A DNA stretch of 64,000 nt from a virus. Made by a program: the position numbers and the translations under genes. The stretch's first letter is position 1. Every line of letters begins with the position of its first letter. Positions 6,456-46,888 of the stretch are shown here, in pieces. Under the pieces are notes generated by a model. It had not been told where the DNA came from and did not search any database. It was given only the letters and a program-made list of their open reading frames with translations. The stretch lies in UHGV virus genome UHGV-1351772; one strand, given 5' to 3'.

Positions 6456-6485
6456 TTTAGATTACACCATTTAGTTAAGTGAGAA

Positions 6486-6512
6486 CTCTCACATAGATGA
6501 AATATATCTTAA
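6486..6512 (-). promoter_or_regulatory. conserved promoter-like motif (minus-strand cAGATATAT...TAgGTGAGAG), copy 1
   Basis: Shared 27 bp motif ~30-50 nt upstream of a start codon; GTGAGA...TCTCAC inverted repeat just downstream. Confidence 0.45.
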
Positions 6513-6525
6513 AATTTTTAAACCG

Positions 6526-6837
6526 TTAACTGAACAAAGCAATGTTAACCGACTTACCAGGTAGCGGGAAATGCTGTAGTTCTATTGACTGAAGTTTCCT
6601 GTCAATAGTCAGTATTTCATCAACGTTGGGCGTAAGACGGAATACGGCGCGTGGTAGCGTGAAAGGTACGTTCGTCGAGCAGTTGTTTAACAGTAACTGA
6701 TCCTGAGAATAGTCAATTTCTACCACCCTCGCAATTACCCAACGTTCGTGAATCTCGCCACCCAGCGGTGCAGTTAGTGCCCGTTGCAAGCGCTGTGAAT
6801 TCGTTTCATCGGTATTAGTGTGGTTTTGGTTCGACAT
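6526..6837 (-). CDS. hypothetical protein
   Basis: Track ORF 6526..6948 overlaps upstream gene by >100 nt; internal ATG 6837 (MSNQNH) more plausible. Confidence 0.3.
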   Translation of the reverse strand: MSNQNHTNTDETNSQRLQRALTAPLGGEIHERWVIARVVEIDYSQDQLLLNNCSTNVPFTLPRAVFRLTPNVDEILTIDRKLQSIELQHFPLPGKSVNIALFS

Positions 6838-7132
6838 AAGTTTCCCCAAACACGTACGCAGATTCTGTTTCAAGCGTCGGTTTAGCGACACGCCACTTCC
6901 ATGCACCGGTTTCAGGATCTTGCCAGGACAACAAAAGAGAACCCTCACAGATTTCAGAGGTATCGACCTCAGGGTGGAACAGCATGAATTCGTTTTCGTT
7001 GTCGTCCACTACGACGAATTGACCTTCTTCTACCCTTTCGAACTTAGCAACGCCTACTACAGTTGCTGGCTCGCCAACAGTAAATACCATTTCTTGTTTT
7101 GGTAAATCACGGTGAATCGCACTTAACCACAT
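6815..7132 (-). CDS. small acidic hypothetical protein
   Basis: ORF track; D/E-rich. Confidence 0.4.
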   Translation of the reverse strand: MWLSAIHRDLPKQEMVFTVGEPATVVGVAKFERVEEGQFVVVDDNENEFMLFHPEVDTSEICEGSLLLSWQDPETGAWKWRVAKPTLETESAYVFGETYVEPKPH

Positions 7133-7202
7133 TTAAGCTGTTCCTCAATTAATTTTGTTTACGTGTGCATAATTAGACACGAAACCGTAAAAATAAATAC
7201 TC

Positions 7203-7226
7203 CCTCTCTCCGTTTGGAGAGAGGGT
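7203..7226 (-). terminator. rho-independent terminator (near-identical stem to 6155-6178)
   Basis: ccctctctcc gttt ggagagaggg, U-run on minus strand. Confidence 0.65.
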
Positions 7227-7230
7227 AAGT

Positions 7231-7737
7231 TTACAGTACGTTTTCTTCTCGATCGTCTACTAAAATCGAAGTAATCACATAACGCGCTAAACGACTGCGT
7301 GCTTCTTCCGTTTCTTCTTCAGAAGGTAACTGTTCGCCCGCAGGTGCACACAACGTTAGCCCAGACTCACGAAGCTGCTCGGTATAGTCTTCCACAGCGC
7401 TGTCGAACGTACCACGAATACCTGCTACCGCATCCATAATTTCGTCGTTCGGAATAATGGATTCTTTTAGCACGGCGTGAGCATCCGTAGGCTCCACCAT
7501 TTGCAGGTTCTGTTCTACCAACAACGCCTGTTTCGCTAAGCTGTCGGTGATAAAGCAAGATAGAATCTTTTCGAAATCGTCTAACGAGAATTCGGTGTCT
7601 TCAGATGCCCCGGTAATCAATTGCCCGTAGCGATTAAAGAATTCTTTACAACGTGTTTCGTAGTCAGCTTCTAAGTCGCGAACACCGAGATCAAAATCGT
7701 GCTGCTCCAGCTGATTAAAATCCAGAGTCTCTTTCAT
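7231..7737 (-). CDS. acidic hypothetical protein
   Basis: ORF track; strongly D/E-rich. Confidence 0.45.
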   Translation of the reverse strand: MKETLDFNQLEQHDFDLGVRDLEADYETRCKEFFNRYGQLITGASEDTEFSLDDFEKILSCFITDSLAKQALLVEQNLQMVEPTDAHAVLKESIIPNDEIMDAVAGIRGTFDSAVEDYTEQLRESGLTLCAPAGEQLPSEEETEEARSRLARYVITSILVDDREENVL

Positions 7738-7775
7738 CTCTAAGTCTCCAGTTAAGAGGTCATATTACCTGCTGG

Positions 7776-8003
7776 TTAGAGTGCCAACGTTAACCCGGTA
7801 TGGGTTTCTACTGAACCAACACCGTCACGCGCTTTTGCTTTGGCGATGAGTTTGTCAATCACGCGCTGATGGCTACGAGTAATGACTTTACCTGGATAAC
7901 CGATAATCAGCACGTTCTCAGTATTAATAACCGCCGAGAATTCGTTATCACCTGCGACGTAAGTAATCTTTTTGTCTTTGGTTACAATACGTTTGATTTC
8001 CAT
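7776..8003 (-). CDS. small hypothetical protein
   Basis: ORF track. Confidence 0.35.
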   Translation of the reverse strand: MEIKRIVTKDKKITYVAGDNEFSAVINTENVLIIGYPGKVITRSHQRVIDKLIAKAKARDGVGSVETHTGLTLAL

Positions 8004-8012
8004 TCAATGTCC

Positions 8013-8786
8013 TTAAAAGATAAAATGGCCAGTTAATGCTTCTACTTCAACACCAGGCATCGCCGGTGGTGCTGAGTATGGAAAAGTAAGACGCACGGCT
8101 GCACCCTTTAAATACGCAATACGGCAGTATGTGGTTAAGAGTGCATTCCCGTAAGTACAGTCGTTATAGAAGAAACCTTCGGTGGCAAACGTCTTTTCGT
8201 TGATTTTCGAATAGACTAAGATACCTTCAACTTTACCGTCTTTACGACAGCACAGCCCTTCGGCAGCCCCAATCGCTAACAAACCCAGGCAGTACGTATC
8301 CAAGCTGACATTAGCCACCTTAGGAATCGTAAACGTTTCTTCTAATGTTAGAGATTCAATATCATCTACATCAGGTAAATCGGTACGAACTTCAGGTTTT
8401 TCAGTAAACGTCAGCTCATAGTCGATAGACGTCGGTTGCATACTCAAAAACGCCATTAACTGATCGCGACGTTTTAGGTCGTTGGCAGGGTAGGTGATAT
8501 CAAACACCTCCACACTTAACAAACGTTTGAGTTGTGCGAAATTGATGTTCTTCTTCGCAAACACAACGATTGCTGACATGTAGAAAATCTTACCGTCAGT
8601 GCGGCCGGAGAAGATTCCTTGTAGCTGATTCGTGTTCGAAAGAATAATAAAGGTCGGATCTTCAGATTCGCGAATGACGTCCTTTTCCAGTAACCCTTTC
8701 CGTACACGGGTTAGCGAAACCATTTTGCCATCCACACCAATTGCTAAATGGTCATTACGATAATCGTGGATATCCACTATGCGCAT
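8013..8786 (-). CDS. hypothetical protein, translationally coupled to dam
   Basis: ORF track; ATGA overlap with dam stop at 8786. Confidence 0.45.
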   Translation of the reverse strand: MRIVDIHDYRNDHLAIGVDGKMVSLTRVRKGLLEKDVIRESEDPTFIILSNTNQLQGIFSGRTDGKIFYMSAIVVFAKKNINFAQLKRLLSVEVFDITYPANDLKRRDQLMAFLSMQPTSIDYELTFTEKPEVRTDLPDVDDIESLTLEETFTIPKVANVSLDTYCLGLLAIGAAEGLCCRKDGKVEGILVYSKINEKTFATEGFFYNDCTYGNALLTTYCRIAYLKGAAVRLTFPYSAPPAMPGVEVEALTGHFIF

Positions 8787-10580: not shown

Positions 10581-10644
10581 GTTAATTACTCCTTAAAAGG
10601 TCGTCTCAAAACAATACGCTAAAGTTGTAAAAACAAAAAAGAAA

Positions 10645-10662
10645 GGGGAACCGAAGTTCCCC
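10645..10662 (-). terminator. rho-independent terminator
   Basis: ggggaac cgaa gttcccc, preceded on plus by A-run. Confidence 0.6.
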
Positions 10663-10674
10663 AATTATTAAACA

Positions 10675-11346: not shown

Positions 11347-11367
11347 GATAATACTCCTTCAGGTTGA

Positions 11368-11727
11368 TTAGTGCGTTGCGGTGTTAGTGATAAAACGCAC
11401 ATTCTTCGTGGTGCGTTTAATGGACGTGTTTGCAACGTAGTCCAACGCTGATTCTACGTGAACGGTTACTGAGCAACGACCCTTAACGGAATTAAAACTA
11501 ATCTGGTATTTCAGACGAATCGCATCAGCAACTTTCATCATAATCGGCAAACTTAAACGTTCTGAGTGATCGTTCTTAATAGACGAGATAACAGGTTGTG
11601 AAACTTTCGCAAGCTGGGCAAGTTCACGCTGAGTAATGTCTTTTGTGGTCAAATGACGAATTACGTAAGACAAGTGAAGACCGAATTTACGTTTTGCCAG
11701 AACGATGGAATTGTGATTGTAAGCCAT
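11368..11727 (-). CDS. helix-turn-helix DNA-binding protein (XRE-like)
   Basis: ITQRELAQLAKVSQPVISSI HTH-like segment; AAAGGAG RBS. Confidence 0.45.
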   Translation of the reverse strand: MAYNHNSIVLAKRKFGLHLSYVIRHLTTKDITQRELAQLAKVSQPVISSIKNDHSERLSLPIMMKVADAIRLKYQISFNSVKGRCSVTVHVESALDYVANTSIKRTTKNVRFITNTATH

Positions 11728-11776
11728 TGTAAATACTCCTTTAGGTTAACAAGTCGGTGTAAAGAGTTAATCATAA

Positions 11777-11803
11777 CTCTCACCTAAGTAAAATATATCT
11801 GAG
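11777..11803 (-). promoter_or_regulatory. conserved promoter-like motif, copy 2
   Basis: ctctcacctaagtaaaatatatctgag; upstream of HTH gene. Confidence 0.45.
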
Positions 11804-11818
11804 AAAAAATAAAATATA

Positions 11819-11840
11819 GGTACCACCGTTGGGTGGTACC
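11819..11840 (-). terminator. rho-independent terminator
   Basis: ggtaccacc/ggtggtacc stem, U-run on minus strand. Confidence 0.55.
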
Positions 11841-11847
11841 TAAGCGG

Positions 11848-12471: not shown

Positions 12472-12502
12472 TATTGTTTTACCTTTACGCGCTTTTAGAT
12501 AA

Positions 12503-12525
12503 AAGGGGTGTAAAAAACACCCCTT
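12503..12525 (-). terminator. hairpin, probable terminator
   Basis: aaggggtg/cacccctt stem with A-rich loop. Confidence 0.4.
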
Positions 12526-12533
12526 AGTTTTAC

Positions 12534-13148
12534 TTACAATTCAAAATATGTGGAAATTAAGCTCTCAAGGTTACGTTCTTCGTACACTTCCTTACTCGTA
12601 GGGTAACCGACGGTATGGTATTTCGCTGTAAAAGAAATGGCCTTGTTTGCAACGACGTACCGGTCATCGATACTCACCTTTTCAGGATGCTTGAGGCTGA
12701 GCGTGACGGTACGTATATGGGTCACCTCAAAATCTTTGATGATAACGCGATCTCTGTGTCGTGAGATAGCAAAATTGCTACTGCCCGCCACGAACTCCTC
12801 ATAACCGCCGACCAATTTAAGAGCTGCTAAACATGCAGTATAAGCGGGATATTTATCAGCCAATAGTTGTTCTTTTGTTACAAAGAGTTTATAGTCTTCC
12901 TCATCGCGAAGGTATCTCAGCAATAATTGGGAACGGAATTTCGACAACAGTCTTTCGTACTGCGATTCCCAGAGTTTTCCATTTTCAGTGAAGAGATGAC
13001 CAACGGTATACTTTAATTTCTCACCTTCATAAATCAAAAGCGAATTTTTCGAGACAAAGCCCGCATTCTTTCTATTTTCGCCAATTTCATTTTCAGCAAC
13101 TTCAACTAAAGTGTAGTTGTTAGGGAGTTCAAAGCGCTTAATTTCCAT
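12534..13148 (-). CDS. hypothetical protein
   Basis: ORF track. Confidence 0.45.
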   Translation of the reverse strand: MEIKRFELPNNYTLVEVAENEIGENRKNAGFVSKNSLLIYEGEKLKYTVGHLFTENGKLWESQYERLLSKFRSQLLLRYLRDEEDYKLFVTKEQLLADKYPAYTACLAALKLVGGYEEFVAGSSNFAISRHRDRVIIKDFEVTHIRTVTLSLKHPEKVSIDDRYVVANKAISFTAKYHTVGYPTSKEVYEERNLESLISTYFEL

Positions 13149-13191
13149 AATTTATCTCTCTTTAAATTGGTGAGTTACCGACTCACTACGG

Positions 13192-13218
13192 TTGTCACAT
13201 TGATAATATCAATCTGTA
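13192..13218 (-). promoter_or_regulatory. promoter-like motif, divergent copy
   Basis: ttgtcacattgataatatcaatctgta; matches consensus at TCAC and TAATAT..ATCTG. Confidence 0.35.
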
Positions 13219-13248
13219 ATAAAATTTAGGGTAAAAAAAAGAAACCCG

Positions 13249-13268
13249 CCCCTACCGTTAAGTAGGGG
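13249..13268 (-). terminator. rho-independent terminator
   Basis: cccctac/gtagggg stem after A-run. Confidence 0.5.
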
Positions 13269-14806: not shown

Positions 14807-14807
14807 T

Positions 14808-15275: not shown

Positions 15276-16408
15276 TATTTAACCTCAATCAGTGACAACC
15301 TGCACCACTCCAGTAACCCTTCCGCAACGCGCACTAACGAGGTAGTAAACGCATCTTCTAAACGCAGTGCGTTTTTATAACGTACGGTAGCGTCGCGTAA
15401 CTCCCGCCCTTCAAGCGACTTAAGTTCCTTACGCATACGCTGAATTTCGTCATAAATTCCTGTATACCCTACACTACGTCGTTTCGCACCACGCTGACGT
15501 AACGCTCGGATAATGTTTCTAACGGCGTCGAGTGCTGAACCGATTTCGTGCAAGTTCAGAGATTTGATTGTGTGGCCAAAATCACCATCGCGAGCAATCG
15601 CCCATTCAATCTTACCGCTGTCGTGTTCAACGACCACCACGTTACCTGGCCACGGATATGCTTTCACCGTTTTAAACGGATCGATAATACCAAACAACCC
15701 TGCGCTTCGTTTAATCGCCCAGTTCGTTGACCGACCCACTTTCTCCAAACCGCTCTCGGTAACTTTCTTGCTCTTACCGATTAACGTACGTGTTTTAACG
15801 GTATACTCGTTGACCATCGCATCCATTGCACTCAGGTTCTTACTGAACTCAATACATGCTTTTACGTTAGGCTTGTCTTCTAAACAAACTTTGGTTGTCC
15901 AACTTCCCGTGTCACAGTCAACCGGTTCTAAAGTGTCCTTGATACCGAGTAAACTTAAACGTGCTTCTAACTTCTGTAGCTTGCGCTCTAACGACGATGC
16001 TTTGGACGTCGCTTCTTTCAGTTCATTAATAACTTCTTTACCGGCGGCTTCCGCGAAGTCGATAAAACGTAAGGCCAATTGCTTAGAATGTTTACCTGCG
16101 AATTTTCCAGACGCTTTGGCTCCCGCCACTGCTGCTTTTCCAGCAACGCGTCCAACTCCCTTAACCGCTCTGCCGGTCGCACGCGCGACCGCTTTACCTA
16201 CCCCTGCGTAAGGCTCGGTGTCCGCAACAAATTGCGCGCGTTCCATCATCGCTGCAGACTCCAACGCAACGTGGACATCATCTAAAGCCCACCGTTTTCG
16301 GATAGCGACAACCGCCGGATAATTGTCTTTAACATTAAGCGATTCTAACTCGACCAAACGATCGTAGTCATCGCAAAGGACTTCTAAATCGGAATCTAAT
16401 GTTGACAT
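15275..16408 (-). CDS. hypothetical protein with Gly/Ala/Lys-rich repeat segment
   Basis: ORF track; GKAVARATGRAVKGVGRVAGKAAVAGAKASGK low-complexity region. Confidence 0.45.
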   Translation of the reverse strand: MSTLDSDLEVLCDDYDRLVELESLNVKDNYPAVVAIRKRWALDDVHVALESAAMMERAQFVADTEPYAGVGKAVARATGRAVKGVGRVAGKAAVAGAKASGKFAGKHSKQLALRFIDFAEAAGKEVINELKEATSKASSLERKLQKLEARLSLLGIKDTLEPVDCDTGSWTTKVCLEDKPNVKACIEFSKNLSAMDAMVNEYTVKTRTLIGKSKKVTESGLEKVGRSTNWAIKRSAGLFGIIDPFKTVKAYPWPGNVVVVEHDSGKIEWAIARDGDFGHTIKSLNLHEIGSALDAVRNIIRALRQRGAKRRSVGYTGIYDEIQRMRKELKSLEGRELRDATVRYKNALRLEDAFTTSLVRVAEGLLEWCRLSLIEVK

Positions 16409-28157: not shown

Positions 28158-29810
28158 TTAGTAACGCACCGGTGCGGTAATTTCACCATTGCTAAGCAGT
28201 GTATAGGATACCGACGGGGTAGCCAGCTTCACAATAGCTTCAGGTGCGCGTTGGTTAATTGCTTCATAGATACCGACAATAGGTTCAAACGCATTACCGA
28301 AGGAGGAAATCTCTACGATATTGCGTCCTTTTGCAGACGGGTAATCCGCAGGCAGCTGGATAGTGTAAGTTACGCGGCAAATTTCAATAGCACGATCGTT
28401 AGATTTCAGACGGAAGTGCAGCTTACGAACAGAACGTGCAACCAGCAAGCACAGTTCGCGGAAGAAATCTGCAGCCGTGGTTACGCCATTTTCACCGATA
28501 GTGCGCGGGAACAGCGTGTCACGGAAGTATTCGAGATCGCTTAAGTTACAATCGAATTGTACAAATTTCGTACCTGGAATTCCTTTACCGTAGTTTGTCG
28601 CAACAGAAATCGCGTTATGAACCAAAACAGTGAGTGTTGCGTTAAACTGCTGACAAAACTCCACACAGCTTTGTTTCAGTGTATCCGGCTCCTCTGCCTG
28701 AGTATTGAAATATTGCAGTAGGCGCTCAGACATTTTACGGATGCGGAACACCTCATCGATCGTACGCTTCAGCATTTCTTCCGGATCGTCAATATCGCGA
28801 ATATCTTCGATACCATCGATTGCCTGGCGGGTGGCAGTATAAAATTCTTGAAGGTAAGTTTTGCTCGAATTCGTACTCACCATCGGGAACAATTTATACT
28901 CGCTTTCGGTTTTCACCATCACATCCGCTTCATCATAAACGCAATAATCGACGTCTTCATTATCGATGATTTCGTCAACCTTTTCTGACCAATTGTGATG
29001 GCTAGAATACGGTGAATTCTTGATGCGTTCATTGAGTTCTTTCGGCGTAAGAATATTTTTCTTAATCTGTTCTCTAAGTTCGTGATCTAAATAGTCTTCC
29101 ACAATTTCCACCCGGAAATGATCGATGATAGGTTTATTGTAACGTTCGACAAGTTCTTCGATAGTTTTCTCGTCGAGCTCACGCGGTTTGTTAGCTTCCA
29201 CCATAGACTGCGAAACAGTCGGTTTAGGCTGTGCCTGTTGCACGGGTTGCTGTGCAGGTTGTTGTGCAGGCTGGCCGAAGTTACCTTGCGGTTGCGGTGA
29301 TTGTTTCTGTGCCGCTGTGCGCGGATCGTAAGTTGACATTGGGATAGAACCCCCTTGTACCGCTGGTGCTGGTTGTGGACTACCATAGCCGCTGCCTGGG
29401 AAGCCAGACGCTGGCATCGCTAAGCTCGGAGACCCACCCATTGCTGGGCCACCAAAAGTGCTCGATTGCGCCATAAGCTGTTTAGCTTGCACCGCATACT
29501 GATTCGCCGTACGGAATTCCTGTTCCAGCTGGCTGTGAATACGCGGGTCCAGTGGCTGCATACCACGTCCCAGTAAGTCACTATACAGCGTCGATTTAAA
29601 AGTTGCCAGAATCGCCGATGCAGTTTCGTTATCTGGACGACGGTTGTATACAAACCACGTGGCGACGGTAACGGCATTATCCATGTATTTGTCGTCATTC
29701 AATCCAGCAGCACGTGCTTGATTACAAAGATACGATAAAAGTTCATCACGACCACTGGAGATCGTGCTATAGATGTGGTTACGAATTACGTCTTTATTGA
29801 CAGTTGCCAT
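28158..29810 (-). CDS. hypothetical protein with Pro/Gln-rich linker
   Basis: ORF track. Confidence 0.5.
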   Translation of the reverse strand: MATVNKDVIRNHIYSTISSGRDELLSYLCNQARAAGLNDDKYMDNAVTVATWFVYNRRPDNETASAILATFKSTLYSDLLGRGMQPLDPRIHSQLEQEFRTANQYAVQAKQLMAQSSTFGGPAMGGSPSLAMPASGFPGSGYGSPQPAPAVQGGSIPMSTYDPRTAAQKQSPQPQGNFGQPAQQPAQQPVQQAQPKPTVSQSMVEANKPRELDEKTIEELVERYNKPIIDHFRVEIVEDYLDHELREQIKKNILTPKELNERIKNSPYSSHHNWSEKVDEIIDNEDVDYCVYDEADVMVKTESEYKLFPMVSTNSSKTYLQEFYTATRQAIDGIEDIRDIDDPEEMLKRTIDEVFRIRKMSERLLQYFNTQAEEPDTLKQSCVEFCQQFNATLTVLVHNAISVATNYGKGIPGTKFVQFDCNLSDLEYFRDTLFPRTIGENGVTTAADFFRELCLLVARSVRKLHFRLKSNDRAIEICRVTYTIQLPADYPSAKGRNIVEISSFGNAFEPIVGIYEAINQRAPEAIVKLATPSVSYTLLSNGEITAPVRY

Positions 29811-31635: not shown

Positions 31636-32646
31636 TTACGTTAGCATCCCTATAAATGCGACACCCGCCGCCAAATACGCAGGGACAGATTTAAATAGGT
31701 CTGAGCCGTCCTTACGAATGTAAGAACGCGTCTCGTAGAATTCTTTACGCGCCTCAGCCCGTGACTTCGCTTCCAATTCCTGTTGCTTGAATGCTAAAGT
31801 CAATCGCTCCTTTTCTAAAGCCATGCTCTGTAGTTGTTTCTTGTGTTCCAATTCTAGCTTGTCTTTTGCCGAATCCAAGCTTTCTAATTTTTCTTTGTAC
31901 TGCTCCTCTAAACGCTGCTTAATCTCAAAGAGACCGGGAACTGCTTCTTGCCATCGAAACGCGTCCGCCGCTGCCTCGTCCTTAAATAATCTAAACGGTG
32001 AAGTAATGTCGTCAAATTCAAAATGAATCATTCGACTGCCTTCCACCCTCGTTCCACCTCCTATTATCATGTAAACGCCCGGTTCATAATAGCGTGACGT
32101 TATTGGCTCGATTTTCATTTTCGTGCCGTAGAAACGTAGCCACCGATAGTTGTCAGGCTCATCGTAGCGCTGCACAACAACAACACCCAATGTAAATTCA
32201 GTGCGCTCACCTCCAGGGCGCATAGTTGGGGGTTTACTATCTAAGCGTATTGGTGTTGTTGAGAAAGCAAAGCCTAATTGCTTTAGTACAACCAAATCTC
32301 CTCGCAGCAACGCGCCAACATCGTTTACTGCATACTCTAACGTTACCTCTCCTTTTTCTTTCAATTGGGCGCAAAAGCGAGAAAATTGTTTTCCCGGCAT
32401 CAGTTCAGCAAACCCATTGAGATTCGCGCATCTTCCGTATGATTGATACGTCACGTAAACGATAACCCCATGCTCATCAGCGGGGTTTTTCGAAGCATTT
32501 AAAATAAAGCTACCGCCACTGGTTTCAGTGACGTGGATAGGCACGCCAGTGTTATTTTCAAACGTAACAAGTTTCCTCAATCCAGACGTTTGACATAACG
32601 AGCGTTCAGAGATACTGGGCACCACATCAATATCAAGACGTTTCAT
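31636..32646 (-). CDS. hypothetical protein with C-terminal coiled coil and hydrophobic anchor
   Basis: ORF track; promoter-like motif ~90 nt upstream. Confidence 0.5.
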   Translation of the reverse strand: MKRLDIDVVPSISERSLCQTSGLRKLVTFENNTGVPIHVTETSGGSFILNASKNPADEHGVIVYVTYQSYGRCANLNGFAELMPGKQFSRFCAQLKEKGEVTLEYAVNDVGALLRGDLVVLKQLGFAFSTTPIRLDSKPPTMRPGGERTEFTLGVVVVQRYDEPDNYRWLRFYGTKMKIEPITSRYYEPGVYMIIGGGTRVEGSRMIHFEFDDITSPFRLFKDEAAADAFRWQEAVPGLFEIKQRLEEQYKEKLESLDSAKDKLELEHKKQLQSMALEKERLTLAFKQQELEAKSRAEARKEFYETRSYIRKDGSDLFKSVPAYLAAGVAFIGMLT

Positions 32647-32735
32647 GGGAACCCAAGCTAAATTTTAATGATGACACATATCTTTAGTTTAAACTGTATT
32701 TTTTCCATACATACTCCTTTAAAACCAACTGGCCG

Positions 32736-32760
32736 TCTCCCATTAATAATATCTATCCAA
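32736..32760 (-). promoter_or_regulatory. promoter-like motif, variant copy
   Basis: tctcccattaataatatctatcc, closest to the 46862 copy. Confidence 0.35.
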
Positions 32761-32788: not shown

Positions 32789-32812
32789 GTCTAAGCCCCG
32801 AAGGGCTTAGAC
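32789..32812 (-). terminator. strong rho-independent terminator downstream of the 764-aa structural gene
   Basis: gtctaagccc cgaa gggcttagac with long flanking A/T runs. Confidence 0.7.
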
Positions 32813-37257: not shown

Positions 37258-37340
37258 CTTATGACCCCTTATGCGTCTCGAAAAACAAAAAAAAACAGAA
37301 GGCTATTAATTATGAACGGGAAACAACTACTGAACTAAGT

Positions 37341-37363
37341 AGGGGGTGGTGACAACACCCCCT
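37341..37363. terminator. GC-rich hairpin (agggggtg...caccccct), terminal member of repeat series
   Basis: T-rich run follows on plus strand; same architecture as hairpin 3 of the two full units. Confidence 0.4.
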
Positions 37364-37378
37364 TTATTAGTTAGTAAC

Positions 37379-37540
37379 TTATCTCCTTACAGGTGGTTGG
37401 TGAACATTGTGGTTGTTAACCGTTTTCGGTGCCGCAACGAGGCCGAGACGAACATATTCGTCCATGCGTTGGTTAAACTGAATTTGTTTTTCACGATTTC
37501 GCATCGCGGTATTGGACATCTGTATTTGATATTCGTTCAT
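37379..37540 (-). CDS. small basic protein, paralog A (53 aa), not in ORF track
   Basis: Manual translation MNEYQIQMSNTAMRNREKQIQFNQRMDEYVRLGLVAAPKTVNNHNVHQPPVRR; AAAGG RBS-like. Confidence 0.35.
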   Translation of the reverse strand: MNEYQIQMSNTAMRNREKQIQFNQRMDEYVRLGLVAAPKTVNNHNVHQPPVRR

Positions 37541-37599
37541 TTTTCATTACCTTTCGTAATGTTGTAAAAACGTCAACAACTTTATGTGTTGACACCGTA

Positions 37600-37687
37600 C
37601 AGCAGAGACTGTTCCGCCAGTCTCTGCTGCTTTAACTTCTCTTTCGAAAAGTTAAAGCTATGAAAAGGGGTGCTTCACCACCCCTTT
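37600..37687. other. conserved three-hairpin structured element, copy 1 (candidate sRNA or intercistronic RNA structure)
   Basis: hairpin1 37600-37629, hairpin2 37629-37658, hairpin3 37664-37687 plus T-run. Confidence 0.4.
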
Positions 37688-37694
37688 ATTTTAT

Positions 37695-37865
37695 TTAGTA
37701 GTTACTTCTCCTTTCGGTGAAGATTTGTACTCGAGGATTATTAGAAGGTTTAAGCCTTTTATTTAATCCTAGCTGTTGAACTTCTCTTAATCGTTCATTA
37801 AACCTCGCTTGTTCTGCATAGCTGTTTGAGATAGAAGTAAAGATACGTGTATTGTTGTTAGTCAT
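37695..37865 (-). CDS. small basic protein, paralog B (56 aa), not in ORF track
   Basis: MTNNNTRIFTSISNSYAEQARFNERLREVQQLGLNKRLKPSNNPRVQIFTERRSNY; GTGAGG RBS 7 nt upstream. Confidence 0.35.
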   Translation of the reverse strand: MTNNNTRIFTSISNSYAEQARFNERLREVQQLGLNKRLKPSNNPRVQIFTERRSNY

Positions 37866-37921
37866 GTTAAAACCTCACACGAGTTGGGGATTAAGCTATT
37901 ACGCGGGTGTAATAGCAACAA

Positions 37922-38006
37922 GTAGGGACTGTACCGGCAGTCCCTACTGCTTTATCTTCTCTTTCGAAAAGATAAAGCGCCTATGGGGAGTGTTGGCGCA
38001 CTCCCC
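37922..38006. other. conserved three-hairpin structured element, copy 2
   Basis: hairpin1 37922-37947, hairpin2 37949-37978 (28/30 identical to copy 1, one compensatory pair), hairpin3 37985-38006. Confidence 0.4.
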
Positions 38007-38015
38007 TTTAGGTTG

Positions 38016-38168
38016 TTACCTCCTCTCAACTGCCAACTGGGTGTTTCTTGAATATGCAACTTTGGGCTGTGTTAACGTTGGTTGCGCTATTTCACTAACC
38101 CTTCGCTGAAACTCAAGTTGTTTTGTTGACAACTCGTTTAACCGTCGAAACAGCAGTTCATGTTTCAT
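38016..38168 (-). CDS. small basic protein, paralog C (50 aa), not in ORF track
   Basis: MKHELLFRRLNELSTKQLEFQRRVSEIAQPTLTQPKVAYSRNTQLAVERR; AGGTGA RBS-like. Confidence 0.35.
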   Translation of the reverse strand: MKHELLFRRLNELSTKQLEFQRRVSEIAQPTLTQPKVAYSRNTQLAVERR

Positions 38169-38212
38169 GAACTCATCACCTATGTCGATTTTGCGAAAAT
38201 AAATAAAGTGTA

Positions 38213-38238
38213 CCCCTAATCCTTTTCGGGATTAGGGG
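38213..38238. terminator. bidirectional rho-independent terminator
   Basis: cccctaatcc/ggattagggg stem with T-runs both sides. Confidence 0.6.
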
Positions 38239-38244
38239 TTGCTT

Positions 38245-39060
38245 TTATTTAGTCGCTACGTATTGAACATGGCCACATTCCTTACATTCCACGTTGGCTT
38301 TCGGGATTGTCAGGCCGGTTAAAGGAACACGTATTTGGTACTGTGCTCCACATTCTTCACAAACAAAATCGTGTTCTGGATAAACACGACCTTCTAATTT
38401 CTCTTCTTTCCTTAGTGTGCCTGCTAAGAACAGCATCGCACCTAACGCTTCATTAATCTGCTGTTCCCATTCTCCGTCTAACGGGTAAGCGAACGCACGA
38501 GTCAACGTTTCCACCATCTCTGGAGTATTACTTACATAAACGTGTTTCAGTTCAAACTCAACACGCTGTAAGCCAAACAATACGCGTGCTGTTACAGTAA
38601 CATTATCCAACGTTTGTGCAAATACAACGGGATTATCGTCGCCGTACATCGCGAATAACGCAGCACGTTCGTATTCGATATCACTCCACTCGATTAGTTC
38701 TACAGATTTAATCTCTTCCGCAATCGTAGCATTACCGAACGTTTCATGTTCCAATAATCCGACGATAACTTCATTCAACGATTTCAATTGCTGTAAACGA
38801 ATCACAGGATCGGTGTTCACGATAAGCAAACGATGCATTCTGGATTTCAACCAATTAATCGTTCCTTCTACACCGCCCCCAAACGAGCAGATGCTTATCA
38901 CTTCAGGTTCGCGAAGGATAAGAGTGGATTTTCCTGCTGCCGTACTCAAGTAGAGTTTAAAAGACTTATCGCTGGACTCTGCAACGATGGCAATGTCTTC
39001 AGTTGGAACAAAGTTTTCATTGCTCAGTCCACGCGGAAAATAATCTTTAATGGTAATCAT
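38245..39060 (-). CDS. hypothetical protein with C-terminal zinc-ribbon (CxxC...CxxC)
   Basis: FVCEECGAQ...VECKECGHV. Confidence 0.45.
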   Translation of the reverse strand: MITIKDYFPRGLSNENFVPTEDIAIVAESSDKSFKLYLSTAAGKSTLILREPEVISICSFGGGVEGTINWLKSRMHRLLIVNTDPVIRLQQLKSLNEVIVGLLEHETFGNATIAEEIKSVELIEWSDIEYERAALFAMYGDDNPVVFAQTLDNVTVTARVLFGLQRVEFELKHVYVSNTPEMVETLTRAFAYPLDGEWEQQINEALGAMLFLAGTLRKEEKLEGRVYPEHDFVCEECGAQYQIRVPLTGLTIPKANVECKECGHVQYVATK

Positions 39061-39090
39061 CTTTTATGCTCCAATTAATAAAAAATTAAG

Positions 39091-39106
39091 GGCACCCGAA
39101 GGTGCC
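39091..39106 (-). terminator. rho-independent terminator
   Basis: ggcacc cgaa ggtgcc after A-run. Confidence 0.6.
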
Positions 39107-39113
39107 TTATACA

Positions 39114-39257
39114 TTAACCACGACCAGTGCACTGTGCAACGGAGTTACCGTTGTCGATGCAAGTGTCGTAGCCTTTGTCGATGTCCAGATACAGGCAACC
39201 CAGAACAACAGCGATAACAACAGCGAAAATAGCTTTTTTGTGTTTTACAGAAATCAT
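39114..39257 (-). CDS. small lipoprotein-like peptide (47 aa), not in ORF track
   Basis: MISVKHKKAIFAVVIAVVLGCLYLDIDKGYDTCIDNGNSVAQCTGRG; AGGAG RBS 8 nt upstream; host-like codon bias. Confidence 0.4.
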   Translation of the reverse strand: MISVKHKKAIFAVVIAVVLGCLYLDIDKGYDTCIDNGNSVAQCTGRG

Positions 39258-39302
39258 GATATAACTCCTAATTAGGTATTCGATAAATGAGTATTACGTA
39301 AA

Positions 39303-39328
39303 CTCTCACCTAGGTAATATATATCTGA
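39303..39328 (-). promoter_or_regulatory. conserved promoter-like motif, copy 3
   Basis: ctctcacctaggtaatatatatctga upstream of lipoprotein-like gene. Confidence 0.45.
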
Positions 39329-39460
39329 AATCTTTTTGAATCCATATACCCTCTAGAACGCTCTAAAACGCATTCTGACGCAATTTTCTTTTTAAAGGGT
39401 AATTAGTCGTCTTAGCGGTTAAATGACTTCTGCGTGTCGTTTAGGAATAAATAAAAGGTA

Positions 39461-39488
39461 TTCCCGTTACCCATAGAGGTAACGGGAA
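39461..39488 (-). terminator. rho-independent terminator
   Basis: ttcccgttacc/ggtaacgggaa stem, A-run upstream on plus. Confidence 0.6.
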
Positions 39489-39492
39489 GTTT

Positions 39493-40299
39493 TTACAGAC
39501 CTTGCATCTTATCCATTACAGCGATTTCAGGATCGTTAATGCCCGTCTTCGAAGAAATCATAAAGCGCTTATCGCTAATAGCTTCTACAGATTCGCGAAT
39601 AAACAATGACTTTTCTTCCGCAACAGGGAGAATAGAATCGTTATCCTGCGGACCCACAAGCTGACAACTGAATGGCACATAGCTGTTGAAAGTCACATAA
39701 GGACCTAACTGCAAGACCGGATACACTTCATTAAAGTTATTTGATGTACCGCTGTCTGTAGAAATAACAGAATAGCGCACCACCGCACGAACCGCTGTTG
39801 TGTATTCAGGATCGCGGGCTTCACCCACCACGGTAAAACGAAACGCATTGAAGTCGTAGTCTTCCGACTCACTAAAGTGTGAAGGGAGAATACGTTCAAT
39901 ATACTGAGGATAGGTTTCTTGTTGCCCTGGAATAACCGCTGCAGCTAATTTCTGAGCATAGAAGTAACAATAAGCAAAGCCGTATTGCGCTTCTAAAGCA
40001 CCAGACACCACGGCAGTTGTGATCGCGTGCAGGAACAACAAATGGCCTAACGTCCCTTTTTCTTCGATTGGTAATAAGCGACAATTCTGTACACCGTCTA
40101 CGGTATAAATAACAGAAATCGTTTTGTCAGCACTGGACGCCATGATGTAGTCCAACTGGCGTTGTTCGCCACCAGGAATAACATTAAGGCAACGTTCTAA
40201 CAACTTCGACGGTTTCGAAAAATTCTCTTCTTCGAACTTGTCGATTTGAATTAACGTTTGGCCAGACATTCTGAAAGTAAGTAGATTACTCATTAACAA
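39493..40299 (-). CDS. hypothetical protein
   Basis: ORF track. Confidence 0.45.
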   Translation of the reverse strand: MLMSNLLTFRMSGQTLIQIDKFEEENFSKPSKLLERCLNVIPGGEQRQLDYIMASSADKTISVIYTVDGVQNCRLLPIEEKGTLGHLLFLHAITTAVVSGALEAQYGFAYCYFYAQKLAAAVIPGQQETYPQYIERILPSHFSESEDYDFNAFRFTVVGEARDPEYTTAVRAVVRYSVISTDSGTSNNFNEVYPVLQLGPYVTFNSYVPFSCQLVGPQDNDSILPVAEEKSLFIRESVEAISDKRFMISSKTGINDPEIAVMDKMQGL

Positions 40300-40325
40300 A
40301 TCCTTTAGGTTACGGACGACATAAT

Positions 40326-43556: not shown

Positions 43557-45045
43557 TCTCTGTTCCTCGCATGGTAATAATGGTCGAGTTCAGCACCGTC
43601 AATAACACACGGGCTTCTACGTTCGGAATCAGTTTATTAATGTCATCGATAACACTCGGCGGTAACACCGGCTTATCCCACCACCAATCAGGAACGTCCC
43701 ATTTCGGGAATAACCACTCAATTAATACTTTCGCTGCCTTCGGATATAACTGTAATGGCCAGAGGTTCATTCCACGCCAGTCAAACATGACCGATTCGGT
43801 TAAGTAATAACCCTTATTTACTTTCAGGTCACGACCTTTAAGCGAAAACGTATTTCCTTCCCAATGGTAGAAACGCGGTTCGATAATCTGTCCCTCTTCG
43901 AACAGCTCGATACGGAAAACACCCGTCTGTCCTGTCGGGTCGATCGCACGACAATGTTCGATATACGGTAGCAACGCTTCGTTCCACTCGTAAGGTAAAT
44001 CTTCCGTAGACATCACCTTCGGCGATAACATGTTGTCCGGTTCAAAAACAACATCTGTACCGAAAATCGGTAGGAGTTTATCTTTCAACGGGGAATGTGT
44101 ACGGTGGAACTGTTCTGTCGGTGACAGTAAATACGGTAAACGAATATACTGACGGGTTTCGTTAATCCACCAGGTTGAATCGAGATTCTTCTGTTGTGGA
44201 TGACGATACACCAGTTCTTCGTTAGACACCCACGGTGGGTCTATCTCTGGCCAATATTCATCAGGCAGCGGTGTCTGATTGATGATATACGGATACGAAA
44301 CCACAATCTCTTCAGGGCGCTGATAAGAGAAACGGATAACGAACGTTGCTTCCCAGTGGTTTTCATCTTTATCCCAAGCCGGTGTTTGAACATCGTATAC
44401 CGTTTCTAAACGCGTAGGTGCGTAACGTACCGCAATGGTTTCCTGACCGCCAGCAACATTAGCTGCGCGAAATACATCGGGCGTAAAATACGCTTTCAAA
44501 TAGGCTTTAAAATCGTCAAACGTTGATACTCGCGTTCCCGCAGCAACGTAGCAGGCATTCAACAATTTTAAAGCAGGTTTAGGGATATAATAGAACGCTT
44601 CTGACTCCGTCATAGTCGAATAACGACCCATGTCCACTAACGAGTCTAAACGGTTCGTCCAGCGCAATAACTCGTCACGTGAGGCACTGGTACGTCGTAA
44701 CGTTACTGTTACGTTATACATCGTTCTAACGGGCCAGGCGCGTACCTGATCGACGGAGTTTTCAAAGAAGTACGGTTCAGCCTGCTGACCAACCTGACGA
44801 TTGATTCTGGCCCACTCATCGCGTTCTTCTTCTACTTCAACGTAAACCTTTTCAGGTGAACTGTACTCTACTTCAGTACCGTCACCTAAAGTAGAATCCG
44901 GTTGATGGGCGCTATTGAATTCATCGAGGAAAACAACCGCTGCTGTATCAATACCAGACTCATTAAGTACACGTTGTATAACACCATCGATTATTGGTTT
45001 GCGAATGGTCGCGTCTAACGACGGAATTTCAAAATACTGTTGCAT
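43537..45045 (-). CDS. hypothetical protein (502 aa)
   Basis: ORF track. Confidence 0.5.
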   Translation of the reverse strand: MQQYFEIPSLDATIRKPIIDGVIQRVLNESGIDTAAVVFLDEFNSAHQPDSTLGDGTEVEYSSPEKVYVEVEEERDEWARINRQVGQQAEPYFFENSVDQVRAWPVRTMYNVTVTLRRTSASRDELLRWTNRLDSLVDMGRYSTMTESEAFYYIPKPALKLLNACYVAAGTRVSTFDDFKAYLKAYFTPDVFRAANVAGGQETIAVRYAPTRLETVYDVQTPAWDKDENHWEATFVIRFSYQRPEEIVVSYPYIINQTPLPDEYWPEIDPPWVSNEELVYRHPQQKNLDSTWWINETRQYIRLPYLLSPTEQFHRTHSPLKDKLLPIFGTDVVFEPDNMLSPKVMSTEDLPYEWNEALLPYIEHCRAIDPTGQTGVFRIELFEEGQIIEPRFYHWEGNTFSLKGRDLKVNKGYYLTESVMFDWRGMNLWPLQLYPKAAKVLIEWLFPKWDVPDWWWDKPVLPPSVIDDINKLIPNVEARVLLTVLNSTIITMRGTENAQSEA

Positions 45046-45096
45046 TGGCTTGTTCCTTCGTTATAGTCATATCACAGGCGCGAAATGAAAAAAAAT

Positions 45097-45120
45097 AAAA
45101 GGGAACCGAAGTCCCCTTTT
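45097..45120 (-). terminator. rho-independent terminator
   Basis: GC hairpin with cgaa-containing loop after long A-run. Confidence 0.5.
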
Positions 45121-45133
45121 ACGTTTATCCTAC

Positions 45134-45430
45134 CTATAACAGATAAGGTATACCTTCAAAGATAATCTCGTCGTTAGCGAAGCCAACAGACGCTTCCTCA
45201 CCCCCAGAGGTGGTTGCCCAAATCTCTGCCGCAAAACGCTGATTGTTAATCAACAGCCCACGGTTGTTTTCGAACAACACTATCAAGACCAACCTGACGC
45301 TTTTATCTTGATGTAAACGGCGTATAAAGGCGTGCTTTACAGAGGAAGGATACCAGGTGAAGCGTGCTATTTTCCCTTTCGCAACTCTACCTAAAAAGAG
45401 CTTTTCTAAGGTTACAAACTCAGTGCCCAT
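45134..45430 (-). CDS. hypothetical protein
   Basis: ATG 45430 overlaps DHFR stop by 11 nt. Confidence 0.35.
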   Translation of the reverse strand: MGTEFVTLEKLFLGRVAKGKIARFTWYPSSVKHAFIRRLHQDKSVRLVLIVLFENNRGLLINNQRFAAEIWATTSGGEEASVGFANDEIIFEGIPYLL

Positions 45431-45956
45431 CTCTTTTCCAAATCTGATAATGCCAACGTGGGACATCGCTATCCGGTTTGGAAGCGTGCGTTAAGTTATA
45501 AACCAGTCTAAACTTGTTACGATCGATTTCAGGAAAGAACGCATCTGCACCATCGACTTTAACTTCTACGCGTGACAAGTAAATCTTATCCACATAAGGT
45601 AACGCCTGATGGTAAATTTCTGCGCCGCCGATAATAAAGATTTCCTTAGGATAACCCTTTTTCTCAACCTCGGTTTTGAGGAATTCAATAATCGAACCCA
45701 TTTCACCCTTAAGGTTAAGCACCCCATCGATATCGGGCACACCACCAGGTCTTCTCGTTAACACGACATGGTGGCGATTTGGTAGGGGTTTATACCCTAA
45801 CGATTCCCATGTCTTGCTTCCCATCACAATAACTTTACCTGACGTAAGAGCCTTAAAATTCTTTAAGTCATCGGGAATACGCCACGGCAGTTTATTGTCT
45901 TTCCCAATTTCGTTATTCAACCCAGCAGCAGCTATCATCGAAACTGTAATTGTCAT
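45420..45956 (-). CDS. dihydrofolate reductase
   Basis: MTITVSMIAAAGLNNEIGKDNKLPWRIPDDLKNFKALTSGKVIVMGSKTWESLG... typical bacterial-type DHFR; start at internal ATG 45956 (ATGA overlap with upstream stop), not track start 46145. Confidence 0.8.
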   Translation of the reverse strand: MTITVSMIAAAGLNNEIGKDNKLPWRIPDDLKNFKALTSGKVIVMGSKTWESLGYKPLPNRHHVVLTRRPGGVPDIDGVLNLKGEMGSIIEFLKTEVEKKGYPKEIFIIGGAEIYHQALPYVDKIYLSRVEVKVDGADAFFPEIDRNKFRLVYNLTHASKPDSDVPRWHYQIWKRDGH

Positions 45957-46258
45957 TTCTTTATCTCCAGTGAGCCTCTTAAATGGCGTATAAAATCTTT
46001 TCGGGTATACCGACTCGTTTTGTACTGATCGGCTAAATGGTAAACGGTAACGTACCGCCCTTTGGCTTCCATATGCAAATGCGTTATATTGCCATCGTTC
46101 GTAGGGAGTGGTCTGATCAGAGGAATCATCAAATCCCCATTCCAACCAGGTTCATTAAGTCTCGGTATCAGTAATCGAATGTCTAGCCGTTTTACGCAGT
46201 ACACCACATTACTTTCCGGCAACTTAACAACACATATCGCATCGGCTTTGAGTTTCAT
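45953..46258 (-). CDS. hypothetical protein
   Basis: ORF track. Confidence 0.4.
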   Translation of the reverse strand: MKLKADAICVVKLPESNVVYCVKRLDIRLLIPRLNEPGWNGDLMIPLIRPLPTNDGNITHLHMEAKGRYVTVYHLADQYKTSRYTRKDFIRHLRGSLEIKK

Positions 46259-46260
46259 TT

Positions 46261-46812
46261 TTAACCTTCCTGGTATTGTCTAATTCCGTAATCAGGTAGA
46301 ATGTTTTCTACTGTGGTTTTCGGTACAACTGAAAGCTGGTTGTATAAATTCAACAAATCCTCGCGCAGTAACTTCTGCTCGATATCAAGTTTATAACAAG
46401 CCAGTTCTTTTTCTAGCGGTTTAAGTAATACAACGCGTGTTTGAAAACCGTCAATAGGCTCAGGAACACGATAACCGCGACGACGATAGAACGTTTCCAG
46501 CTTCGAATAATCACGAATGTATGTTTTCGTCAGTGTAGAATAACCTGCGTCTAACATAAACTTGTAGAACGGACGTAAAGCGATGAAACGATTATATTCC
46601 AGGTGCACCGGAATATAGAATTCGTAATTGCCGTAAGTGAGCGTGGAGAGTTGGGAACCATTACAATGCACACAGTTAATAAAAATAGCCAGTCCAATCA
46701 TTACCGGGCGTGGGACGATAAGAGTTTTATCGCCAAACTGAATGCGGAAAATTTCCTGCTGCAGGCTGGTTTCAGATACGACTTCAGCGTCTAAGATATT
46801 AAATTTGTTCAT
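46261..46812 (-). CDS. hypothetical protein
   Basis: ORF track; TAGGAG RBS; promoter-like motif upstream. Confidence 0.45.
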   Translation of the reverse strand: MNKFNILDAEVVSETSLQQEIFRIQFGDKTLIVPRPVMIGLAIFINCVHCNGSQLSTLTYGNYEFYIPVHLEYNRFIALRPFYKFMLDAGYSTLTKTYIRDYSKLETFYRRRGYRVPEPIDGFQTRVVLLKPLEKELACYKLDIEQKLLREDLLNLYNQLSVVPKTTVENILPDYGIRQYQEG

Positions 46813-46861
46813 TTCTATTCTCCTAAAGGTAATAAACTGGTCGTTAAAAGATTACAATGTA

Positions 46862-46888
46862 ATCTCACTAAGATAATATCTATCTGTG
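46862..46888 (-). promoter_or_regulatory. conserved promoter-like motif, copy 4
   Basis: tctcactaagataatatctatctgtga followed by AGATTACA/TGTAATCT palindrome. Confidence 0.4.

Follow-up and report, generated by a model that had tools for sequence, protein, structure and literature searches.

Probable early promoters of a virion-packaged RNA polymerase in an SPN3US-like jumbo phage genome, and 5′ hairpins in the leaders of its relatives

Results

Six Promoter-Like Elements and the Units They Precede

We analyzed a 64,000-nucleotide stretch of the virus genome UHGV-1351772 (the window, by which we mean this whole stretch), where six copies of an AT-rich, promoter-like element lie on the minus strand, which is the main coding strand, all of them intergenic and each a short distance ahead of a start codon. 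Taking the evidence below together, we consider it likely that an SPN3US/phiEaH2-like jumbo phage uses the six elements as early promoters, read by its virion-packaged RNA polymerase (vRNAP). The promoter class is already known, and the window adds six members to it from an undescribed SPN3US-like phage; the fresh detail is a hairpin at the start of many predicted transcripts in this group of phages.

By analogy with mapped promoters of the same type, an invariant G within the element was taken as the predicted transcription start (+1). The six copies, each running from −35 to +5, are listed here with their core, spacer and score in bits against an independently trained matrix.

6486..6525, minus strand: predicted early promoter, core AAGATATATTTCAT-CTATGT-G, predicted +1 at 6490, 26.8 bits, the most divergent copy
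11777..11816, minus strand: predicted early promoter, core CAGATATATTTTAC-TTAGGT-G, predicted +1 at 11781, 37.6 bits
13192..13231, minus strand: predicted early promoter, core CAGATTGATATTAT-CAATGT-G, predicted +1 at 13196, 31.9 bits
32735..32774, minus strand: predicted early promoter, core TGGATAGATATTAT-TAATGG-G, predicted +1 at 32739, 31.3 bits, just downstream of the major capsid gene
39303..39342, minus strand: predicted early promoter, consensus core CAGATATATATTAC-CTAGGT-G, predicted +1 at 39307, 48.1 bits
46862..46901, minus strand: predicted early promoter, core CAGATAGATATTAT-CTTAGT-G, predicted +1 at 46866, 47.7 bits

Each promoter would open a short unit, usually just past the terminator of the preceding one. 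Strong GC-rich intrinsic terminators were found upstream of five of the six sites, four of them directly and the fifth about 130 nt away.

11817..11842, minus strand: intrinsic terminator, 11 bp stem and T-run, directly upstream of the promoter with +1 at 11781
13249..13268, minus strand: intrinsic terminator, directly upstream of the promoter with +1 at 13196
32789..32812, minus strand: intrinsic bidirectional terminator, past the capsid gene and directly upstream of the promoter with +1 at 32739
39461..39488, minus strand: intrinsic bidirectional terminator, some 130 nt ahead of the promoter with +1 at 39307
46920..46948, minus strand: intrinsic terminator, 13 bp stem and T-run, directly upstream of the promoter with +1 at 46866

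From the predicted +1 to the first start codon, the six leaders measure 31–54 nt, which is comparable to the 31–40 nt that is typical of phiKZ leaders. The genes that follow are these.

6186..6455, minus strand: first gene from +1 6490, 89 aa, phrog_12339, function unknown, C-terminal ...GCGCYGSSRKI
11368..11727, minus strand: first gene from +1 11781, a 119-aa HTH DNA-binding protein, Pfam HTH_37, phrog_7126
12534..13148, minus strand: first gene from +1 13196, 204 aa, without a family match
32658..32708, minus strand: first ORF from +1 32739, 16 aa (MEKIQFKLKICVIIKI), with its own Shine-Dalgarno sequence
31636-32646, minus strand: gene after the 16-aa ORF, phrog_7286
39114..39257, minus strand: first gene from +1 39307, a 47-aa peptide with a hydrophobic N-terminal stretch ...VVLGC, phrog_8574
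39091-39106: terminator after gene 39114..39257
46261..46812, minus strand: first gene from +1 46866, 183 aa, phrog_12369, function unknown

An earlier note on this DNA, made from the letters and their open reading frames, had described the first genes as encoding a protein with a GCGCY tail, an HTH regulator and several hypothetical proteins, and these descriptions are broadly accurate; it had also suggested a lipoprotein-like nature for the 47-aa peptide. The positional ortholog of the HTH gene in SPN3US carries the annotation 'HTH DNA binding protein'. In SPN3US, the gap after the major capsid gene holds two tandem promoter copies, at 72485 and 72683. Two further 10-mers in tandem, CGTTTTAGAG CGTTCTAGAG, stand at 39351-39370 on the minus strand, some 45–65 nt ahead of the predicted +1 at 39307, and occur once in the window; the orthologous place in SPN3US has a tandem CGTTTGAGAG CGTTATAGAG. 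These repeats might be the binding site of a regulator.

Anatomy and Detection of the Element

All six sites at which the motif had been proposed were found in place, and on the minus strand they align without gaps (aAGATATATTTCATCTATGTGAGAG, cAGATATATTTTACTTAGGTGAGAG, cAGATTGATATTATCAATGTGACAA, tGGATAGATATTATTAATGGGAGAC, cAGATATATATTACCTAGGTGAGAG and cAGATAGATATTATCTTAGTGAGAT). The earlier note had counted exactly 16 bp between two conserved boxes in three of the copies; this spacing is in fact true for all six, but it is a mere consequence of the gapless alignment. Read along the minus strand, the element consists of an A-tract/T-tract, gATTAAAAAtaaTTT, followed by the AT-rich core, a 6-nt spacer with the consensus CTAGGT and the invariant G, the core and what follows it reading cAGATAKATATTAY, then N6, then G. 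The same AGATAKATATTAY-N6-G geometry is present at six of six window sites and in 45 independent copies from relatives, where the G is the most informative position (2.0 bits). Conservation spans about 40 nt, including this G 6 nt past the AT box, and the element is strongly directional, with the A/T tract fixed on one side and N6-G plus GAGAG on the other.

To assess the motif quantitatively, we compared its frequency with that in shuffled sequence, a check that had been named beforehand. A degenerate pattern built from the six sites, GATWKATWTYAYYWWDGKGASA, matched the window six times compared with 0.03 matches expected in shuffles, and with two mismatches allowed it gave no window match beyond these six. 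When each site was omitted in turn from a leave-one-out matrix, the omitted site ranked within the top 6 of 127,952 positions, at 15–35 bits compared with 5–11 bits for the next best. An independent matrix, trained on 45 sites from outside the window only (SPN3US and IMG/VR relatives), recovered exactly the six sites at 26.8–48.1 bits, while the rest of the window scored no more than 6 bits and the maximum in the shuffled window was 6.2 bits. Together, these scans confirm the six-site motif. Whole-window k-mer enrichment was also tried and proved uninformative, dominated as it was by coding-sequence words.

Neither a sigma70 −35 hexamer nor an extended −10 TG was found at any of the six sites, in line with what had been said earlier of the hexamer, and sigma70-like matches showed no excess over shuffles (12 compared with 13.7, and 19 compared with 25.2). 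A single weak sigma70-like call (9/12), at 6529-6501, overlaps a motif site.

Distribution in Related Jumbo Phages

The capsid and helicase genes of the window share 79–80% nucleotide identity with those of Salmonella phages SPN3US and STsAS and Erwinia phages phiEaH2 and Asesino, which are 240-kb relatives of phiKZ. The window ORF at 62486..63805 on the minus strand is 74% identical to SPN3US ACQ60_gp224, annotated 'RNA polymerase beta subunit', and had no PDB match; as far as that annotation holds, it indicates that the window's phage encodes a piece of a multisubunit RNA polymerase (RNAP). The nearest IMG/VR sequence, UViG_3300029126_000001 (225 kb), carries a copy of the element identical to window 39303-39342.

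A scan of the whole SPN3US genome with the window-derived matrix gave about 20 strong matches, essentially all of them in the main coding orientation, and each of the six window sites has a positional counterpart there. The extended SPN3US consensus reads gATTAAAAAtaaTTT-CAGATATATATTAC-CTAGGT-GAGAG, and the invariant G is kept even in weak copies that are without the remainder of GTGAGAG. Downstream of the site at 28968, at a distance of 46 nt, is a homolog of phiKZ gp71, which is the beta subunit of the non-virion RNA polymerase (nvRNAP; PDB 7OGP_C, E 2e-29), and the sites at 15613 and 15706 precede a 617-aa ORF and then a homolog of phiKZ gp55, nvRNAP beta′ (7OGP_A, 5e-39). In phiKZ, gp54 and gp55 are chimallin and nvRNAP beta′, and by synteny alone the 617-aa ORF is probably chimallin. 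No motif site was obtained by the matrix scan in the 114–162 kb block of SPN3US, which holds mostly virion structural genes.

Beyond SPN3US, the Escherichia coli phage Goslar has the motif, as ATTGAAAAAAATTTCAGGGTTATATTAC-CTAGGT-G, 66 nt upstream of Goslar_00189, which we take to be the chimallin gene chmA, and in PhiPA3 ...CTATATTAC-CTAGTT-G lies upstream of gene 024. An exact-pattern scan of IMG/VR returned 52 loci on 21 contigs, 14 of which exceed 100 kb and are mostly jumbo genomes of 220–248 kb. By blastn, the 42-nt consensus matched 86 phage records at a coverage of at least 80%; the matches listed at that coverage are jumbo phages of about 200–310 kb, mainly from Erwinia and Salmonella, with several known nucleus-forming phages among them.

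Correspondence with Mapped Early Promoters

RNAP-encoding jumbo phages have two multisubunit RNAPs, a virion-packaged vRNAP for early genes and an nvRNAP that is produced from early genes (PMC7598289; PMC13282480). According to a review, an AT-rich, phage-specific motif near −10, ahead of the early operons, is bioinformatically detectable in every one of these phages, and wherever tested the AT-rich motif is the early promoter (PMC7598289). The early promoter of the Bacillus phage AR9, established by differential RNA sequencing and primer extension, is AAATATATATTAT-(6N)-G+1 and is active despite chloramphenicol; early starts of phiKZ and phiR1-37 likewise lie 6 nt downstream of the AT-rich element (PMC5312081). 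The window core, AGATAKATATTAY-(6N)-G, is a near-match to the AR9 promoter in sequence and has the same geometry, as is apparent when an annotated AR9 promoter, AAATAGATATTAT-aataat-GAGAAAA, is set against the copy at window 46866, AGATAGATATTAT-cttagt-GAGAT. The AR9 RefSeq record (NC_031039, 1-50000) annotates its early promoters as 13-nt 'regulatory' features, and the records of SPN3US-like phages have no promoter annotation, though the motif is equally clear in them.

The earlier note had suggested a phage-specific promoter class read by a phage-encoded or phage-modified polymerase, and a phage-encoded one is supported by the AR9 match, the RNAP-encoding lineage and the lack of a sigma70 −35 hexamer. 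Its suggestion of middle or late timing is not supported, given the match to the AR9 early core with its N6-G, the presence of the motif ahead of the SPN3US nvRNAP genes and of Goslar_00189, the presumed chmA, and its absence from the mostly structural block of SPN3US. In phiKZ, the genes for the subunits of nvRNAP are driven by vRNAP early promoters (PMC13282480). Since nvRNAP cannot make its own first copies, and since its genes are early in phiKZ, these data point to the early vRNAP class, and the six elements would be used by vRNAP early in infection.

5′ Hairpins in the Window

It had also been proposed that the conserved GTGAGAG/GAGAG segment forms the 5′ arm of an inverted repeat with a 3′ arm that differs from site to site. 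We folded the window leaders from the predicted +1 and obtained an energy and a z-score for each site. The four inverted repeats named earlier all exist.

11762..11781, minus strand: 5′-terminal RNA hairpin, +1 to +20, GAGAGUUA-ugau-UAACUCUU, −7.5 kcal/mol, z −4.1, robust
46848..46866, minus strand: 5′-terminal RNA hairpin, +1 to +19, GAGAUUAC-auu-GUAAUCUU, −5.5 kcal/mol, z −3.9, robust
6479..6492, minus strand: inverted repeat GUGAG-aguu-CUCAC, −5.9 kcal/mol, z −1.3, using two bases upstream of the predicted +1 at 6490
13170..13186, minus strand: leader hairpin GUGAGU-cggua-ACUCAC, +11 to +27, −6.5 kcal/mol, z −1.3

A hairpin at every site, as first envisaged, holds robustly at 11781 and 46866 but not at 39307 (−2.7 kcal/mol, z −0.35) or 32739 (−2.3 kcal/mol, z +0.44), whose leaders have no significant hairpin. 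The role of the conserved box as 5′ arm is likewise only partly borne out: the structure at 6490 needs the upstream bases and is left with 3 bp when folded strictly from +1, and the 5′ arm at 13196 is a second GTGAGT copy 12 nt further on rather than the motif's own GTGA box. The latter hairpin is kept in the leader of the SPN3US ortholog, there about 50 nt further from the promoter. Rfam covariance models gave no match at gathering score anywhere in the window.

5′ Hairpins Across the Clade

For the clade as a whole, we used 65 unique sites (window plus IMG/VR loci), which fall into 32 clusters without common leader 9-mers; this clustering is conservative in that single linkage merges some non-orthologs. 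The strong form G[T/G]GAGA is found in 23 of the 32 clusters, and a site was scored as positive when a single hairpin of −5 kcal/mol or lower started at +1 to +3. By this measure, 12 of the 23 strong clusters have a hairpin, compared with 0.81 ± 0.91 in shuffles (at most 3), and the remaining GAGA sites of these genomes have one in 7.3% of cases (p = 1.3e-8 against the strong clusters). Two other measures had been tried. The plain minimum free energy of +1 to +32 separated the leaders weakly from other GAGA windows (−5.3 compared with −4.1 kcal/mol, p = 0.012), and base composition differs between the two sets; a hairpin of at least 5 bp starting at +1 to +3 was too permissive (17/32 compared with 12.3 in shuffles), which the energy threshold fixed.

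When the stems were extended outward, the commonest single 5′ boundary was the predicted +1 (7 of 18). Swapping the 5′ arms (+1 to +8/10) among sites changed the folding energy from −4.96 kcal/mol in native leaders to about −2.9 kcal/mol (p about 0.001); arm swaps thus destabilize the folds, and each 3′ arm therefore fits the part of the 5′ arm that varies between sites, as in the pairs GAGAGUUA/UAACUCUU, GAGAUUAC/GUAAUCUU, GAGAUGAG/CUCAUCU and GAGACGUA/UACGUUUC. The idea of a fixed GAGAG 5′ arm with a co-varying 3′ arm hence holds statistically at the level of the clade. G·U pairs make up 17 of 127 pairs, with G+1 opposite U more often than C in the cluster representatives, and folding is better on the sense strand than on the antisense strand (p = 0.03). 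G·U pairing and this strand bias speak for a structure in RNA more than for a palindrome in DNA or one bound by protein, in agreement with the earlier preference for an RNA stem-loop over a protein operator. The stem-loops lie at or downstream of the predicted +1, with stems that are short and AU-rich (−5 to −9 kcal/mol), loops of 3–12 nt and a variable sequence.

None of the eight AR9 early promoters examined has any leader hairpin, and the hairpin is therefore not needed for promoter recognition or initiation by vRNAP; it is an RNA-level add-on in the enterobacterial clade. By analogy with known leaders, its function is most likely that of a 5′-end stabilizer. A search of open-access text found no description of a conserved GAGAG start with a co-varying hairpin from +1 in this clade. 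By eye, a stem-loop is also seen at the predicted +1 of Goslar_00189 (MK327938, 172813-173148, reverse complement, positions 185-208), namely GAAUGAGC-gaguagaa-GCUGAUUC, of 8 bp with one mismatch. The habit of a 5′ hairpin may extend past the SPN3US/Erwinia clade.

Discussion

Alternative Identities of the Box and the Hairpin

A phage-specific element that lacks a −35 hexamer could also belong to the nvRNAP as a middle or late promoter, as might be expected from the copy that adjoins the major capsid gene immediately downstream and from phiKZ genes that have both an early and a middle promoter. We nonetheless regard this as quite unlikely. Known nvRNAP promoters are short and different, with TATG for phiKZ late genes and a weak AT-rich middle motif at −24 (PMC7598289); the AR9 nvRNAP promoter, AACA-N6-TA/G, differs as well, whereas the window motif matches the early consensus (PMC5312081). 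Moreover, in SPN3US the motif stands before the genes of the very enzyme that would have to read it, and is missing from 114–162 kb. Host sigma70 promoters, with a −10-like TATATT and an upstream A/T-rich, UP-like tract, would account for the TATATT or GATATT hexamers of the core, for the A-tract upstream and for the weak call at 6529-6501, but about 40 nt of conservation with an invariant G 6 nt past the AT box is not sigma70 architecture, the −35 hexamer and the extended −10 TG are missing and the matches do not rise above shuffles. Infection of the phiKZ type is, in addition, rifampicin-insensitive and independent of host RNAP (PMC7598289; PMC13282480), and we consider a sigma70 identity extremely improbable. 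The box might instead be the operator of a DNA-binding protein of the phage, such as the HTH product of 11368-11727, with AGATA-N5-TATCT as a dimer site. One copy does drive an HTH gene, the AGATAGATATTATCT variant is a 5-bp inverted repeat and reverse-strand shadow matches occur at window 13196(+) and 46866(+) and at SPN3US 15633(−). Against this, every copy points the same way, on the coding strand and with asymmetric flanks, the strongest copies (..ATATATTACCT..) are non-palindromic and in AR9 this core belongs to a mapped promoter (PMC5312081), which makes an operator very unlikely; one overlapping the promoter may exist but would be secondary. All three of these identities are unlikely mainly because of the directional build of the element, its N6-G geometry and its match to AR9.

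The promoters could also be as we describe them and the stem-loop something other than a stabilizer: a promoter-proximal attenuator or pause site, a put-like anti-termination RNA or a DNA-level structure. Many of the hairpins are indeed followed by 3–4 U (…AAUCUUUUAAC…), phiKZ has many conditional terminators within 5′ untranslated regions that yield short RNAs and each unit begins just past a terminator. However, the stems are short and AU-rich with short U-runs, compared with stems of 10–13 bp, rich in GC, and 8–10 T in real phage terminators, and some of the U-run pairs with the 5′ GA. The G·U pairs and the better folding of the sense strand point to RNA and away from DNA, and the predicted +1 as the commonest stem start fits a function at the 5′ end. 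We therefore hold such a role to be unlikely, and favor early vRNAP promoters whose transcripts, in many copies, begin with a stabilizing hairpin.

Several observations weigh against this account. No mapped transcription start site for the clade was found in the searchable literature, and the position of +1 and the early timing lean on analogy and gene context. According to a 2017 paper, no vRNAP had been purified from a phiKZ-related phage (PMC5312081). The 617-aa SPN3US ORF had no Pfam or PDB match. As to the hairpin, a significant 5′-terminal structure is present at only two of the six window sites, and in 7 of 18 hairpins the pairing reaches 1–5 nt upstream of the predicted +1, which is about the expectation for random pairing; it would also fit a start 2 nt earlier in some copies, such as the 6490 family.

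A Possible Course of Early Transcription

In the scheme that we favor, injected vRNAP would bind the AT-rich box, with the A/T tract upstream, and start at the invariant G, giving transcripts that begin with GAGAG or GAGAU and short units closed by strong terminators. Like the starts of other phage-polymerase promoters, the conserved purines at the 5′ end probably serve initiation or promoter escape. In roughly half to two thirds of the strong copies of the enterobacterial clade, GAGAG would at the same time be the 5′ arm that pairs with a site-specific 3′ arm, leaving an RNA 5′ end that is paired from its first nucleotide and often closed by G+1·U. In enterobacteria, 5′-terminal hairpins block decay by RppH and RNase E, as in ompA and the T7 phi10 leader. 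A paired 5′ end could protect early mRNAs from the same 5′-end-dependent decay, and messages made ahead of any phage counter-measures would gain most. We also thought of the hairpin with GAGAG, joined in some copies by a leader box (see below), not as a passive stabilizer but as a dedicated cis-signal that marks the early mRNAs made by vRNAP; transcripts might need it to be released or exported from the early-infection vesicle, or it might be recognized by a phage RNA-binding or ribosome-hijacking protein. This is unlikely in our estimate; if true, it would explain why the hairpin is tied to the promoter and not to individual genes.

Comparison with Known Systems

The elements resemble the vRNAP early promoters of AR9, phiKZ, 201phi2-1 and phiR1-37 in having an extended AT-rich element near −10 with a T/A-rich tract upstream and a start G 6 nt downstream, in standing before short operons of mostly unknown early genes and before nvRNAP genes and in occurring in genomes with two multisubunit RNAPs, the AR9 core being nearly identical. 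They differ from the AR9 type in that the clade adds the conserved spacer CTAGGT, a GAGAG/GAGAU start and a stem-loop that, in many copies, begins at the predicted +1 or close to it, whereas AR9 early leaders start with GAUA or GAGA and have no hairpin.

T7 class III promoters, with the phi10 leader, have a conserved purine-rich start (...TATAGGGAGA) and a 5′ stem-loop that stabilizes the mRNA. As in T7, a long phage-polymerase promoter here runs into a purine-rich start (window 32739, ...TTAATGGGAGA) and a 5′ stem-loop; however, T7 uses a single-subunit RNAP and a GC-containing promoter from −17 to +6, while the window has AT-rich promoters and a split beta/beta′ enzyme, and there is no sequence homology. 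Stabilizer hairpins of the ompA type are similar as small stem-loops with 0–2 unpaired nucleotides at the extreme 5′ end, but here the 5′ arm is fixed by the promoter-linked start and repeated at many units of one phage.

In phage N4, vRNAP promoters contain a DNA hairpin upstream of +1, with a 5–7 bp stem and a 3-nt loop, and are read by a single-subunit enzyme. Shared with N4 are an RNAP injected from the virion and a hairpin associated with early promoters. In contrast to N4, the stem-loops of the clade lie at or after the predicted +1, with loops of 3–12 nt and G·U pairs, and are dispensable in AR9, and what is recognized is a linear stretch of conserved, AT-rich sequence. The PeSL cassettes of T4-type phages combine a terminator stem-loop, an AT-rich tract, an early promoter and a Shine-Dalgarno sequence and flank small unknown genes (PMC4122927, PMC2839356). 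The window likewise has a repeated intergenic cassette, with a terminator upstream of five of its six promoters, but PeSL promoters are of the sigma70 type with the stem-loop upstream, whereas those of the window are without a −35 hexamer and their co-varying hairpin lies downstream, in the transcript.

The result amounts to a map of early transcription for an uncharacterized SPN3US-like phage, giving six predicted start sites with their units, and the 40-nt consensus picks out early promoters throughout the nucleus-forming phages of Erwinia and Salmonella. Conservation of the core as far as Bacillus phage AR9 constrains how a sigma-less virion polymerase recognizes DNA, and the clade-specific hairpin offers a testable handle on how phage mRNAs of the first minutes survive host RNases. 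The promoter-leader cassette could also act as a strong expression module that is active only in infected cells.

Other Sequence Elements

Some early leaders contain a leader box, (A/T)TYGACYATYA, 8–13 nt ahead of the Shine-Dalgarno sequence, with the form TTGACTATCAAGGA in Erwinia phages.

SPN3US 56338, 65458, 94283, 114033 and 223321, and also 57149, 167595 and 224200: leader box
Window 11749-11757, 46834-46842 and 39275-39283, minus strand: degenerate leader boxes

YGACYAT was considered as part of the promoter and rejected: its strict form is present in 3 of 32 non-redundant leaders and also occurs at ribosome-binding sites without a promoter. The leader box might be a translation-linked element. 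A second promoter class, TTTTTACAAC after terminators, was dropped as well, as it is not conserved at the corresponding places in SPN3US. Past the T-runs of terminators, TTTTTACAA(C) is found at window 5117, 10633, 19824 and 37570 on the minus strand, in four intergenic regions without the early motif. Its look of a separate promoter class is not borne out in SPN3US, where it is not conserved at matching places.

Finally, the region 37300-39500 is dense in strong, mostly bidirectional GC-rich terminators among very small ORFs and has the look of hyper-plastic DNA made up of short, independently transcribed units.

37341-37363: terminator
37600-37629: terminator
37921-37948: terminator
38212-38239: terminator
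39461-39488: terminator, the one upstream of the promoter with +1 at 39307

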